The position numbers and the translations under genes are program-made. A stretch of DNA of 64,000 bases, taken from a virus (lineage: Duplodnaviria; Caudoviricetes). This document shows, in pieces, positions 4,368-54,386 of this stretch (positions within the stretch are counted from its first letter, which is position 1; each line of letters begins with the position of its first letter). The notes beneath the pieces were generated by a model. It saw only the letters and a list, made by a program, of their open reading frames with translations, searched no databases and was not told where the DNA came from. The stretch lies in IMG/VR virus record IMGVR_UViG_3300002092_001784, positions 96,001 through 160,000 of that record. One strand, written 5' to 3'.

Positions 4368-4469
4368 GGTCGGGTGGCGAAATTGGTAGACGAATAATCT
4401 CTTACATATAGAGATAAGAATAAGGCTGCAAGGCAGTACTTCATGCAGGTTCGAGTCCTGCCCTGATCA
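4368..4469 (+). ncRNA. tRNA-Leu-bodied RNA with enlarged anticodon/variable region
   Basis: ggtcggg/cctgatc acceptor, Leu-type D region tggcgaaattggtagacg, T-arm gcagg-ttcgagt-cctgc, A73; about 50-nt atypical core. Confidence 0.7.
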
Positions 4470-4872: not shown

Positions 4873-4996
4873 GATCAGGTGGCGGAATTGGTAGACGCTT
4901 ACAATATGATAAGGTGAACGAGAGGAGAACCGATAAGAATCAACCGCTTTTATATTATTCAGCTTCACTTAGCAGGTTCGAATCCTGCCCTGATCA
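4873..4996 (+). ncRNA. Second tRNA-Leu-bodied RNA with about 70-nt extended core
   Basis: gatcagg/cctgatc acceptor, tggcggaattggtagacgc D region, gcagg-ttcgaat-cctgc T-arm. Confidence 0.7.
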
Positions 4997-5001
4997 CATA
5001 A

Positions 5002-6257: not shown

Positions 6258-7131
6258 AAGAACTGAACAAAGCTTCGGCAGAGTGAAAGTTCAAGACGGC
6301 CGCCTATGGTCGTTAAATAAACTACGAAAGTAGGATAAAGTGAACCGGTGTGGTTTATACGGTTTGCGGTTTGATAATCGAAAGGTTGTTGAGCTCGAGT
6401 AGGCAATGGAAATATCATCGCTCCTTTAGTATTGAGGGTAACACTGTAAAGATGGTGGAGAGATGACTGGGCTAAGTAGATAGTCCGGTTGAGTTCGGAA
6501 GAACAATAAGAATAATTTCAAGGATTTATGCAAGAAATGGGAACTTAATCCCTTCTCACTATTGCGTGATTCAATATGAGAGTTGACTTAAAACCGAAAG
6601 GTAATGTAAGTATGGTGAATTGCCAGAATGTACAGGTGGTGCTGTTATTCCTTTCACTACAAAGTTTTACCAAAAGCTTTGAATACTTCAGTCCACTTAA
6701 AATGTGGTGTTAGGGATAACACATTGGGTAGTTTAGTATTCCGTTGTTCAAAAGGTAACGGAGCTGGTTGGCGAACCACTACCCGAATCCATCTACAAAC
6801 CAAAACTATTTGAAATATGGTTCAAAACTAAAAATCAAAAAGCAAAAGTGTTCGTCAGTTGCAAGCGAAAGGTGCGTACTTAGTAATGGGTTGTCCATTG
6901 CCATATGTAATAGCCAAAATCATATGATTCTAAGGAAAGACTTCTAACACCGCAAGTGCTAATCAGTTCGGCAGAATTGATGAGGTGTAATAGTTGGAGA
7001 GTAGTTTGTAACTCAAAGAGTGGTTCACTTAAATAACCCGCATTGAATCAATACCAGCCAAAAGCAGGTGGATAATAAGGGAAACAATAATCCTTATAAA
7101 GATGGTTCACATAAGCAAGTAATCTCATTGC
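6258..7131 (+). ncRNA. Probable GOLLD RNA (giant ornate ncRNA)
   Basis: About 870 nt, no real ORF, dense GNRA/UUCG hairpins, own promoter plus boxA, tRNA context. The 3' segments agcaaaagtgt, gcgaaaggtgcgtac, gagagtag..gtaactca, caaaagcaggtggata, gggaaac..taatcc..taaaga and gtaatctca match my recollection of the GOLLD 3' domain. Confidence 0.7.
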
Positions 7132-7212: not shown

Positions 7213-7251
7213 CACTTAGTTATGGTTCTATTAATTAAAAACCAAAAATTT

Positions 7252-7319
7252 GCGGTTTAAGTGTTACGGTAGCACAGGAACATTCCAGTTTCAAGATGGG
7301 TTCGACTCCCAAAACCGCT
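7252..7319 (+). tRNA. Atypical tRNA-Gly(TCC)-like
   Basis: gcggttt/aaaccgc, good D-arm and TTCGA loop; 6-nt anticodon loop attcca and 4-bp T-stem. Confidence 0.5.
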
Positions 7320-7355
7320 CTAAGATAAATTCAGTTCAGTAATGAACTAAAAATC

Positions 7356-8678: not shown

Positions 8679-8781
8679 CAGCATGTGTGATATATCACTC
8701 ATTAATGATTAATTTGATTAAAATAAACAACATTATGAAAAAACTATTTGACAAGTATTAGGTTAATTAAAACCTAGTATT

Positions 8782-9003
8782 ATGAAACCGTACAAAAAAT
8801 CAATGATTGCTAAAACTACAACTTGTAGAAAAGAATACAAAGTAGTTACTAACCGTTTTTATAAAGACCCGTATTGGGATGAAGGGCTATACTTTTATCC
8901 AACAATACGAAAGGGTTATAAAAACCCTAACAGACAGATTATGAGTTATCAGATTAGAATGTATCGAACTTGGAAACATAATCGGAAAACTCAATGGAAA
9001 TAA
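8782..9003 (+). CDS. Small basic hypothetical protein inside the tRNA array
   Basis: 73 aa, ends RTWKHNRKTQWK. Confidence 0.55.
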   Translation: MKPYKKSMIAKTTTCRKEYKVVTNRFYKDPYWDEGLYFYPTIRKGYKNPNRQIMSYQIRMYRTWKHNRKTQWK

Positions 9004-16784: not shown

Positions 16785-16860
16785 GCGAATGTAGCTCAAT
16801 TGGTAGAGTACGGCGTTGCCAACGCTGAGGTTGTGAGATCGTAGCTCATCATTCGCTCCA
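16785..16860 (+). tRNA. tRNA-Gly(GCC)
   Basis: cggcg-ttgccaa-cgctg; encoded CCA. Confidence 0.92.
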
Positions 16861-16973: not shown

Positions 16974-17046
16974 GCGGAAGTAGCTCAATTGGTAGAGCGC
17001 CTGCCTTCCAAGCAGGGGGTTGAGGTATCGTACACCTTCTTCCGCT
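16974..17046 (+). tRNA. tRNA-Gly(TCC)
   Basis: cctgc-cttccaa-gcagg; U73. Confidence 0.92.
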
Positions 17047-52156: not shown

Positions 52157-52228
52157 GGCGAGTTCGTCTAACGGTTAGGACAAATGGTTTTCATCCATTA
52201 AATAGGGTTTCGATTACCCTACTCGCTA
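52157..52228 (+). tRNA. tRNA-Glu(TTC)
   Basis: aatgg-ttttcat-ccatt. Confidence 0.88.
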
Positions 52229-52250
52229 CGATAAACCAAACACGCTAGGT

Positions 52251-52291
52251 GACGACCACAGGTGATATTGTTGGCAGCTCGGAAAGACGGC
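52251..52291 (+). ncRNA. GAAAGA-loop small RNA, copy 3
   Basis: cagctcggaaagacggc identical to 5049-5065. Confidence 0.45.
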
Positions 52292-52297
52292 AAATAT

Positions 52298-52371
52298 GGT
52301 GCGTTAGGCAAATTGGCTAAGCCGTCAGCCCTTCAAGCTGAAGATTTCGGGATCGTACCCCGAACGCACTA
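52298..52371 (+). tRNA. Second tRNA with TTC (Glu) anticodon, C33 variant
   Basis: ggtgcgt/acgcact; tcagc-ccttcaa-gctga. Confidence 0.7.
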
Positions 52372-52377
52372 CACTTA

Positions 52378-52661
52378 GATAGTTTCATAATTTAAGGTCA
52401 AGCCACATTATGTTGAGTGGAGTTTACTTCATTTGACGCCAGATGAAATTATCGAGGTAACGAAGGATTAGAGGTGGCTGTGACTACTTCGTTACCAGCG
52501 GGATAAATAATGGAAGTTAGTTGACAAACGGCTTAAAGAAAATGTTGACAGATACCGCCTGTATGGTAACCGGCCGCTACCTTAAAGGCTTGAATTGACA
52601 ACCATTGTTTTGAAAAATCTATGAGTAATCATAGTATCTTTGGGGGTAATTAACCAAAGAT
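52378..52661 (+). ncRNA. Structured ncRNA region (unassigned)
   Basis: gatagtttcat/atgaaattatc, ggtaacgaag/cttcgttacc, aaataatgg/ccattgttt, atctttgg/ccaaagat. Confidence 0.45.
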
Positions 52662-52680
52662 TAGAAGGTTCGAAACTTCA

Positions 52681-52801
52681 AAATGGTTTAGTGTATTGGG
52701 CACGGGTCAAACAGACTATTATAAAATAATATAGAACTGAAATAGCTGTGAGATAAATAATGTTGATTCCAGCATTGGGTTCGAATCCCAATAACCGTTT
52801 T
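52681..52801 (+). ncRNA. tRNA-like RNA, 8-bp acceptor, about 70-nt core
   Basis: aaatggtt/aaccgttt; D gtg-tattggg-cac; T ttggg-ttcgaat-cccaa. Confidence 0.55.
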
Positions 52802-52807
52802 TAATGT

Positions 52808-52878
52808 AAAGTTATTAGTGTGAGGTCACACATCGGTATATAACCACTGATGCAAGGTTCGATTCCTTCATAACTTTC
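52808..52878 (+). ncRNA. tRNA-sized tRNA-like RNA with ambiguous anticodon arm
   Basis: aaagttat/ataacttt; D gtgt-gaggtc-acac; T aagg-ttcgatt-cctt. Confidence 0.55.
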
Positions 52879-52918
52879 TATACGAAAATTGTTCTTTGTA
52901 TATATTTATATTTAATAT

Positions 52919-52994
52919 GGTCTTAGGGGCTGCATGGAGTGGCCGTCTGCCTGTCACGCAGAATATCAGGAGGGATCGTTACCCTTTGGGACCG
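52919..52994 (+). tRNA. tRNA-Asp(GTC)
   Basis: tctgc-ctgtcac-gcaga; G73. Confidence 0.88.
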
Positions 52995-53094
52995 CAAAAG
53001 AAATGGGATTGAAATAGGAAAACGGCAATTTTCCAATAGTAAATTTGGTTTCACTACTAAAAGGTAAGTTTGCCGACAAACCAAAAAGTAGTTT

Positions 53095-53164
53095 TTCTCA
53101 TTAGTTCAATTGGAAGAACCCCGGTAGGAACTGGGTGATGTAGGTTCGAGTCCTACATGGGAAT
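53095..53164 (+). ncRNA. tRNA-like RNA with 4-nt loop in place of the anticodon loop
   Basis: ttctcat/atgggaa; D gttc-aattggaa-gaac; cccggt-agga-actggg; gtagg-ttcgagt-cctac. Confidence 0.65.
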
Positions 53165-53277
53165 CATAACATAGGTGGGTAGGTAGGATGCACAGAATGT
53201 ACTGTTAAACTAATGTGTAGGGTATCGCTTGTATGATAATAACAGTAGAGGTGTACAGTAACCTATGTTTTTTATTT

Positions 53278-53352
53278 GGGGTCGTAGATTAATTGGCTAA
53301 ATCACCTGATTTGCATTCAGGAGACTTGAGGGTTCGAAGCCCTTCGATTCCA
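53278..53352 (+). tRNA. tRNA-Ala(TGC)
   Basis: cctga-tttgcat-tcagg; G3:U70. Confidence 0.92.
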
Positions 53353-53426
53353 CGAATACTAACACATTGGCTTTGTGTTGAATTTATCGGATAACATGCC
53401 GTTTACATTATTATGTAATAAAAGAA

Positions 53427-53610
53427 GCACCGATTGAAAGGAAAGTTCACAACTAAACCTGCTTAACCTTTGGAATGTAAAGGTAACTTATATCTTAAAG
53501 CCGTATTCGGGTTGGTGAGTAATGAGAGAACCTGCCTTTGCCGTTTCCACTAAACGAGTAAAGAAAAATCACATTAAATAACTCTACACAGTGGGGGATA
53601 TATCGGTGAC
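53427..53610 (+). ncRNA. Structured ncRNA, loosely RNase P RNA-like
   Basis: caccgat/atcggtg closing stem; ordered motifs aggaaagttc, ggtaac, agt..gagagaacctgcc, taaac-gagtaaag, tacacag. Confidence 0.3.
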
Positions 53611-53621
53611 CCACTAATTTC

Positions 53622-53698
53622 GGGCCTGTATCGGCTCTGGCTCATAACCAGTTGAAACCGTAATTGGTAGCATGTAGGTTCAATCCCTACCCGGCCCA
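53622..53698 (+). tRNA. D-armless tRNA-Met(CAT)-like RNA with extra hairpin in the variable position
   Basis: gggcctg/ccggccc, ctgg-ctcataa-ccag, accg-taat-tggt, gtagg-ttcaatc-cctac, A73. Confidence 0.55.
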
Positions 53699-53750
53699 CT
53701 TTTATTATTTTCTTTTGGATATTTATGATTGAATTTAATTTATATCTGAA

Positions 53751-54386
53751 ATGAAAAAAGTATTAACATTATTATTTGCGGTATCCCTAACAGTATCCGT
53801 TTTTGGACAAGATACGGTTCGTATAGTCCATACAAACTACATAACAACTTTCAGCAAATCTCTAAAATATCCGGTTAAAGTAGAATGGACACTTACTGCT
53901 AATAGAGTTAATTGTGCTAAAAAACTCCCAAGACCAGCAGAGTTTAAGCCAGACCCACAGTTTCCTAACACAAATTATGCGTTGGATTATAAAAAAAGTG
54001 GATATGATAAAGGACACAATTGCCCAGATGATGATAACGCTTGTCAAACAACAGATATATTAGAGCAATCATTTTATTATACCAATGTGATGCCACAACC
54101 ACATAGTTCAAACGCAGGAGATTGGAAATCAGTTGAAACTCTATGCAGAAGTTTGGCAATAAAAGGAAACACAGTTCACATTTGGAGTGGTGGTATCGGT
54201 ATTCAAAAGAAAATTGGAAAAGATGGTATTTGTGTTCCAAAACAAACTTGGAAAGTGGTCTATACCGTAAACACAAAAACATACAAAGCATATCTGTTTA
54301 ACAATACAGATGAACCACAGAAGGGTGCAAACTCTCATTTGGTAGATAAATCAGTAATCGAAAAATTAACAGGTTTTAAGTTCTAA
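53751..54386 (+). CDS. Exported DNA/RNA non-specific endonuclease (NucA/Serratia type)
   Basis: Signal peptide; F.PDP, DY.KSGYDKGH, SFYYTN..PQ...N.G.W. Confidence 0.88.
   Translation: MKKVLTLLFAVSLTVSVFGQDTVRIVHTNYITTFSKSLKYPVKVEWTLTANRVNCAKKLPRPAEFKPDPQFPNTNYALDYKKSGYDKGHNCPDDDNACQTTDILEQSFYYTNVMPQPHSSNAGDWKSVETLCRSLAIKGNTVHIWSGGIGIQKKIGKDGICVPKQTWKVVYTVNTKTYKAYLFNNTDEPQKGANSHLVDKSVIEKLTGFKF

Follow-up and report, generated by a model that had tools for sequence, protein, structure and literature searches.

Three tRNA-like RNAs lacking a decoding anticodon loop in the tRNA array of a T4-type freshwater phage, one of them with a relative in a distant phage

The tRNA arrays of phages are usually viewed as a codon supply, or as a way to replace tRNAs that host defences have cleaved. 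Three tRNA-like genes around a tRNA-Asp in the array of a lake phage appear unable to decode, and the question is what such genes are and why an array would keep them. The original prediction was that they are anticodon-defective tRNA mimics that form part of an arsenal of decoys against host nucleases.

The genes lie on a single 266,153 bp contig of a T4-type freshwater (lake) phage, with 34% G+C and a completeness of 100% (CheckV). The window analysed here is a stretch of 64,000 nucleotides, bases 96001-160000 of this contig. It encodes a tmRNA, a GOLLD RNA (6724-7131) and 24 tRNAs detected by ARAGORN; lowered thresholds and the Rfam model added candidate Pro, Ser, Met and class II tRNAs. 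With a total of about 27 tRNAs plus the tmRNA, tRNA-related functions are a sizeable investment of this phage. Apart from the other tRNA regions of the window is a mini-array at 52157-53700, with all members on the + strand and no ORF between 52145 and 53751. Its features, in order, are the following (the three elements in question are defined as E1, E2 and E3).

52157..52372, + strand: two tRNA-Glu(UUC), beginning at 52157 and 52298, at the start of the mini-array (ARAGORN, Rfam)
52682..52800, + strand: E1, a long tRNA-like RNA of 119 nt (ARAGORN intron mode, fold, T-arm motif)
52809..52878, + strand: E2, a compact cloverleaf of 70 nt (ARAGORN at -ps90/-ps80, fold, C74 trailer)
52919..52995, + strand: tRNA-Asp(GUC), T loop ATCGTTA with A54/U58 swapped, member of an unusual family (ARAGORN; neighbour of the E3 family)
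53085..53094, + strand: 5′ leader of E3, AAAGTAGTTT, which includes AGTAGTT (kept in the L110/L102 copy by alignment)
53095..53165, + strand: E3, a tRNA-shaped RNA of 71 nt (Rfam tRNA, ARAGORN tRNA-???, homologue in L110/L102)
53278..53353, + strand: tRNA-Ala(UGC), 3′ of E3 (ARAGORN, Rfam)
53622..53698, + strand: tRNA-like RNA with loop CTCATAA (anticodon CAT), at the end of the array (T-arm motif, sequence, fold)

Among the tRNA genes of this 34% G+C genome, 27 of 29 encode an N73-C74 trailer, which is often followed by A and never extends to a full CCA. The 3′ ends of these tRNAs thus need a CCA-adding enzyme. In the last member of the array, at 53622-53698, the CTCATAA loop is perfect, the variable region is long and the T arm reads GTAGG-TTCAATC-CCTAC; a D arm is missing.

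Two of the spacers between array members are structured (52373-52520, z = -3.6; 52996-53094, z = -2.4). The spacer between the second tRNA-Glu and E1 contains two long hairpins (52378-52496, z = -3.6), and only 1 of 200 shuffles folds equally well. A piece of the 3′ tail of this spacer, GATAAATAATG, is found again within E1 at 52751-52762. We considered a leader-peptide attenuator in this region 5′ of E1 and found no convincing small ORF. Pfam searches of the ORFs flanking the array returned no matches. These ORFs have no known function, and no gene for a partner protein is linked to the array. PTH2 (PF01981) and TROVE/Ro60 (PF05731) are both absent from the whole 266 kb genome, which rules out a link of E1-E3 to either protein, including an arrangement like that of Y RNA with Ro60.

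The existence of the three elements, at these coordinates and on the + strand around tRNA-Asp, was confirmed by ARAGORN, Rfam, folding and shuffled controls. As a control, ARAGORN was run on 30 dinucleotide shuffles of the window; neither the default settings nor intron mode gave a match, and -ps90 gave 0.13 per 64 kb. Across the whole genome, a strict T-arm motif has 23 + strand instances and not one on the - strand; all but one of the 23 fall in tRNA regions, with those of E1 and E3 included. Given that the shuffles are nearly empty and the T-arm motif is strand-specific, we infer that E1-E3 are derived from tRNAs and are not chance folds. All three have a 7 bp acceptor stem and a TTCGA T loop (the T stem of E2 is only 4 bp). 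None has the 7 nt anticodon loop with U33 and purine 37 on a 5 bp stem that decoding tRNAs carry. The predicted lack of a usable anticodon loop therefore holds for each of them, in the form of an expanded arm of about 50 nt in E1, an 8 nt loop in E2 and a 4 or 6 nt loop in E3.

E1 is predicted by its fold to be a long tRNA-like RNA, with the top half of a tRNA, a variable-arm hairpin and an enlarged AU-rich centre. The acceptor stem is 7 bp (8-9 bp if the flanks pair too), the T arm is canonical (TTGGG-TTCGAAT-CCCAA), the variable-arm hairpin is 6 bp and the D stem is 4 bp with a 5 nt loop. An AU-rich insert of about 55 nt (24% GC) fills the place of the anticodon arm, and the tail is U73 followed by TTT. 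ARAGORN detects E1 in intron mode only, and the Rfam tRNA model gave no match to it at E<=10. Its G+C content (35%) is near the window mean of 34%. We also considered a tRNA split by a single insertion or intron. All deletions of 8-65 nt yielded weak and mutually inconsistent “tRNAs”, and as no single deletion restores a consistent tRNA, E1 is not a tRNA interrupted in this way.

E2 is best described as a compact, borderline cloverleaf, as judged from its predicted structure. The cloverleaf is its minimum-energy fold, with an acceptor stem of 7-8 bp, a D stem of 3-5 bp, a 6 bp anticodon stem with the 8 nt loop AUAUAACC, the T loop TTCGATT on its 4 bp stem, and a U73-C74 tail. The variable region is very short (2-3 nt), and E2 departs from tRNA geometry in the D arm, the variable region and the T stem. 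ARAGORN detects it only at the relaxed settings of -ps90 or -ps80 and reads a 4 nt anticodon, AUAA. The Rfam tRNA model had no match to E2 at E<=10, and the G+C content of 39% is near the background of the window (34%). E2 may be decaying.

E3 is the most tRNA-like of the three by the Rfam tRNA model, with a score of 42.1 bits against a cut-off of 29, although ARAGORN calls it tRNA-???. Its four stems are fully paired, and the canonical bases U8, A14, G18, G19, A21, G53, T54, T55, C56, A58 and C61 are all in place. The D stem is followed directly by the anticodon arm, which has 16 nt (18 nt is normal) and can form either 6 bp with the loop AGGA or 5 bp with the loop UAGGAA. The local alignment to the Rfam model skips this arm, in which 11 nt are fitted to 13 model positions. 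The tail is U73-C74-A.

The tRNA-Asp between E2 and E3 belongs to a recognisable family in huge phages, and a family-wide scan of metagenomes with a tRNA-Asp pattern gave 15 loci. An E3 homologue was identified in only 2 of these, the lake metagenome contigs L102 and L110, at L110:833-904 (- strand) and, in identical form, at L102:6631-6702 (- strand); the two contigs are identical over that part. This copy is 72 nt long and is located 6 nt upstream of the same unusual tRNA-Asp. The phage is a distant one, in which shared proteins have 64% and 37% amino acid identity to those of the phage studied here. A small ORF of about 75 aa within both tRNA arrays (window 8776-9000; L102:4917-5144, - strand) is 64% identical. 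The two E3 copies share 77.5% identity, compared with 77.6% for the adjacent pair of tRNA-Asp genes, whereas the surrounding spacers can no longer be aligned.

The differences between the two copies leave the fold intact. All 16 of the 16 acceptor, D and T pairs that we compared are preserved in both, with two-sided changes at 11-24 (U-A to C-G), 49-65 (G-C to A-U) and 6-67 (A-U to G-C), and the acceptor stem has been further remodelled by compensatory changes while remaining 7 bp. The T arm is the same except for one compensated pair (16 of 17 nt). The loops that form the elbow are almost invariant, and the D arm, G18, G19 and A14 are kept in both lineages. In simulations, the probability that 8-16 random substitutions break no pair was 6e-3 to 1e-4. 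These counts derive from two distinct sequences only, with pairs counted by hand and the probability simulated; the gaps that MAFFT placed in the acceptor stem are inconsistent with the structure.

The anticodon arm behaves differently. Rfam scores the L110 copy as a tRNA at 50.8 bits and places a 2 nt deletion in its anticodon loop (CCGGC--GUGAAGCCGG). The stem is CCGGC/GCCGG and the loop GUGAA, with G in place of U33. The loops of both copies are therefore 2 nt short, and their sequences are unrelated. As the 2 nt deficit occurs in both, the short anticodon arm is an old trait that they share. The discriminator also differs (U73 in E3, C73 in the L110 copy), as does the acceptor sequence, and because neither is conserved, no fixed aminoacylation (synthetase) identity is apparent for the E3 family.

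Because the conservation of E3 equals that of tRNA-Asp, its pairs are compensated and the loop is again short in the relative, E3 appears to be selected as a tRNA shape. Sequence comparison with this one relative lineage indicates that its body (acceptor stem, D arm, T arm and elbow) is under selection as strict as that on a real tRNA, and that E3 is a selected, non-decoding tRNA-shaped RNA, with selection acting on shape without decoding. The original prediction, that the T and D arms would be conserved and the anticodon arm variable among relatives, thus held for E3 in one lineage, while E1 and E2 yielded no relative by which it could be judged.

Other searches were as follows. IMG/VR was scanned with DNA patterns of E2 and E3, both exact and degenerate, which returned nothing or just ordinary and class II tRNAs. 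Metagenomes gave no match to an Asp T-arm pattern specific to this lineage. Scans of GTDB genomes gave nothing at first and then a chance bacterial tRNA-Ser. No homologue of E1-E3 was found in 16 related phage contigs recruited via the endonuclease, the 150 aa ORF and the terminase. A search of 50,697 phage records returned nothing for E1 or E2 and only generic tRNA similarity for E3 (best, T5 tRNA-Pro at 74%). Overall, neither E1 nor E2 has a homologue in the IMG/VR pattern scans, the 15 metagenome loci, the 16 related contigs, the GTDB genomes or the phage records. Relatives of the flanking endonuclease (53751-54386) and of the 150 aa ORF are without nearby tRNAs and without synteny, and an 87 aa ORF neighbouring the array is present on about 20 contigs. 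The locus is a hypervariable region without conserved synteny in relatives.

On balance, we favour the view that this phage tRNA operon includes three genes of tRNA origin whose products do not decode, and that these RNAs are unrelated to each other and do not form a family. What was established directly is that the elements exist, that they fold like tRNAs beyond chance, that they lack a decoding loop and that the body of E3 is under selection. In the mechanism that we propose, E1-E3 would be co-transcribed with the adjacent tRNAs and excised by RNase P and 3′ trimming enzymes, and E2 and E3 would probably be completed to CCA from the encoded C74. They would then work via the surface formed by the acceptor and elbow, and not on the ribosome. 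Such RNAs would most likely compete for, or bait, proteins with affinity for the body of tRNAs, such as host toxins, nucleases, and processing or modification enzymes. A trans-acting mimic of this kind, which applies to those elements that are functional, is a tentative reading that we consider plausible but far from assured.

Which proteins such bait might engage is constrained by the missing loops. The decoy role against PrrC, RloC, VapC and PARIS that had been envisaged is weak, because these enzymes recognise anticodon loops (PMC10264068, PMC11464382, PMC11555353), which E1-E3 lack. As the classic anticodon nucleases read loops that are absent here, the target of any bait should instead read the elbow or the acceptor end. 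To speak of an arsenal also overstates the unity of the elements, since the three are not paralogues of each other.

The non-decoding reading has to be weighed against decay, in which an array with fast turnover would contain duplicated tRNAs that recently lost their function through an indel or insertion in the anticodon arm, namely E1, E2 and possibly E3. For the three loci taken together we regard this as unlikely, though it deserves to be kept in mind, and the elements differ greatly. For E1 and E2 decay is close to an even prospect. The locus is hypervariable and lacks synteny in relatives, both elements are orphans with near-background G+C that fail the Rfam tRNA model, and the D arm, variable region and T stem of E2 are deviant. 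Odd loops also occur at a low rate elsewhere, with five calls of 6 nt loops among 310 distinct tRNAs of phage arrays. On the other hand, the acceptor and T stems of E1 and E2 are fully paired, E2 retains its C74 trailer, both keep the position and strand of the operon, and removing any one segment of E1 gives no consistent tRNA. No close paralogue of E1, E2 or E3 was found among the tRNAs of the genome, so we rejected the possibility that they are recent copies of these. For E3, decay is highly unlikely and we reject it: the short arm is common to a distant phage, the body evolves as slowly as tRNA-Asp, and changes in the stems are compensatory. The earlier statement that the pattern is unlike random pseudogene decay thus applies to E3, with its compensatory changes and shared short arm, and does not extend to E1 and E2, which have no relatives, score below the Rfam threshold and are near background in G+C.

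The main functional alternative to a role in trans is that the folds are processing punctuation, i.e., cis signals for cutting by RNase P and RNase Z that release, or define the ends of, spacer RNAs and tRNAs from a long transcript. RNase P and RNase Z can do without an anticodon arm, and analogues exist in mascRNA, which serves MALAT1, and in the t-elements of plant mitochondria. The elements sit between long spacers, some of them structured as described above, the 5′ leader of E3 is conserved and the arm that they lack is dispensable for both enzymes. However, a minihelix of acceptor and T arm suffices for such cutting, and the D arm, G18, G19 and A14 kept by E3 go beyond that; moreover, the two phages do not share the order and spacing of E3 and tRNA-Asp, nor are the spacers conserved. 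We consider this account improbable. A role in unusual decoding is less probable still, and we give it very little weight: E2, with its 8 nt loop, would read a four-base codon or cause +1 frameshifts, and E3 would serve -1 events or special decoding. Frameshift-suppressor tRNAs, sufD and sufJ among them, are characterised by an 8 nt anticodon loop, and ARAGORN reads AUAA in E2. Quadruplet-decoding tRNAs combine an 8 nt loop, U33, a 4 nt anticodon followed by a purine, and a normal body; in E2 the quadruplet is followed by two pyrimidines (CC after AUAA) where purine 37 is required, and the body is aberrant. An anticodon loop as small as those of E3 and its relative (4-6 nt) is not known to decode, and the relative has G at the position of U33. 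No gene requiring a frameshift was identified.

Returning to non-decoding tRNA-derived genes as the preferred reading, a more far-reaching version of it can be formulated, which we regard as speculative and rather unlikely. E3 and its relatives would form an undescribed class of anticodon-sealed phage tRNA mimics, which might further include E1 and E2 together with the long tRNA-like RNAs (1429, 4368, 4873) and the one resembling tRNA-Gly (7251). These would be matured and CCA-tailed in the manner of tRNAs and would soak up defence proteins that read the elbow or acceptor (CCA-end toxins, T-loop or acceptor nucleases), while the decoding tRNAs would escape by means of a swapped 54-58 pair and C33.

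The decoding tRNAs of this phage have unusual features of their own. In four of them the T loop is ATCGT instead of TTCGA: the second tRNA-Glu (52349-52361), tRNA-Asp (52972-52984), tRNA-Gly(GCC) (about 16830-16846) and tRNA-Gly(UCC) (about 17018-17034). The T54-A58 pair is thus swapped to A54-U58 in all four. The tRNA-Asp orthologue in the 735 kb phage LR756501 has a normal TTCGAAT, so the swap is lineage-specific. Through it, the four tRNAs might evade an enzyme or nuclease that acts on the T loop. The second tRNA-Glu(UUC), at 52298-52372, has C33 where U33 is universal, in the loop CCUUCAA.

The window also encodes further tRNA-like RNAs. At 7251-7320 is a 70 nt RNA resembling tRNA-Gly(UCC), with the 6 nt loop AUUCCA and the full set of Gly acceptor identity elements (G1-C72, C2-G71, G3-C70, U73). 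The UUCC of this RNA is complementary to GGAA in the loop of E3, possibly by chance. Its homologue was not found in the collected metagenome loci. The Rfam tRNA model does recognise the RNAs at 1429-1529, 4368-4469 and 4873-4997 (101-125 nt), which had also been predicted to be tRNA-like, and aligns them with inserts as large as 30-56 nt. In two of them (4368 and 4873) the D arm is of the class II type (GGTGGCGGAATTGGTAGACGC).

Arrays of other huge phages hold comparable oddities. The motif AGTTACTTCG, or a close variant, lies 5′ of many T arms left unassigned by ARAGORN (L017, L105, L108, L109, L102/L110), and the window RNA at 4368 has CAGTACTTCA at the corresponding place (about 4425-4440). 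T arms with this motif may represent a widespread, undescribed family of tRNA-like RNAs. A 95 nt tRNA-??? with a 4 nt anticodon call, AGGG, recurs between contigs (L018:6488-6770, L111:1612-1706, L114:6676-6770), and the tRNA next to it resembles Pro(AGG). Another huge-phage array encodes a tRNA with the anticodon CUA (L101:5439-5510), of the amber suppressor type and called Pyl by ARAGORN; TAG may be recoded in this phage.

In combination, the results suggest that at least one member of the array, E3, is under tRNA-grade selection despite its inability to decode. Because E3 appears to be selected yet non-decoding, some of the “tRNAs” that giant phages carry may act otherwise, through the shape of a tRNA. 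Unassigned (orphan) T-arm elements are common in the arrays of other huge phages, and E3 is a small, defined and conserved entry point to non-decoding array RNAs. The findings also call for caution in annotation, as not all “tRNA-???” calls in phages are junk.

Comparison with known systems places the elements near, but not within, several groups. With canonical tRNAs (RF00005) they share the cloverleaf, acceptor stem, TTCGA T loop, D-loop GG, location in a tRNA operon and N73-C74 trailer; they differ in that the 7 nt loop with U33 and purine 37 is missing from all three, and E1 and E2 are below the Rfam threshold. Closest in setting are two genes of T4, rnaC (species 1, 139 nt) and rnaD (species 2, 119 nt), which encode non-tRNA RNAs and share both cluster and strand with the tRNAs of that phage. 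Their function has been without explanation for 50 years. E1 is likewise a non-tRNA gene on the same strand as the tRNA cluster in which it lies, with a tRNA-like 3′ domain. The fold of rnaC, like that of E1, ends in a canonical T arm (CCGGGUUCGAAUCCCGG) after a variable-arm-like hairpin and a large central domain, whereas E1 has a clean 7 bp acceptor stem that the rnaC fold lacks. The likeness is one of plan only, as blastn of E1 and E2 against the 50,697 phage records gave no match in the T4 group. E2 and E3 differ from both T4 RNAs in being cloverleaves of tRNA size.

Phage tRNAs that evade nucleases are known from several systems (van den Berg et al., 2023, PMC10264068), including the tRNA-Lys of T5 against PARIS (PMC11464382) and tRNA-Tyr against retron effectors (PMC11555353). 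E1-E3 resemble these as members of phage tRNA arrays with anticodon loops unlike those of the host, and their phage is likewise rich in tRNA functions. The evading tRNAs, however, keep a 7 nt decoding loop and replace host tRNAs that have been cleaved, whereas the loops of E1-E3 are not competent for decoding, and as they cannot decode, E1-E3 are not replacements. Modules of tRNA shape with a reduced anticodon arm that are substrates of RNase P and RNase Z are also found in mascRNA/menRNA (RF01684) and the t-elements of plant mitochondria (PMC1920247), but these belong to eukaryotes or organelles, where they act in cis upon a host transcript; an Rfam search of E1-E3 had no match to RF01684. 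The “tRNA-Other” of Bacillus cereus (PMC3399842) is, like E1-E3, a tRNA-like gene outside translation and has a phenotype, but it is a single, chromosomal bacterial gene. A survey of viral tRNA-like structures lists candidates without function (PMC10690425), and none of the literature searched describes a phage RNA of tRNA shape that is conserved while its anticodon arm is truncated. We place E3 among the tRNA-like RNAs of phage tRNA clusters, with E1 and E2 as possible further members.
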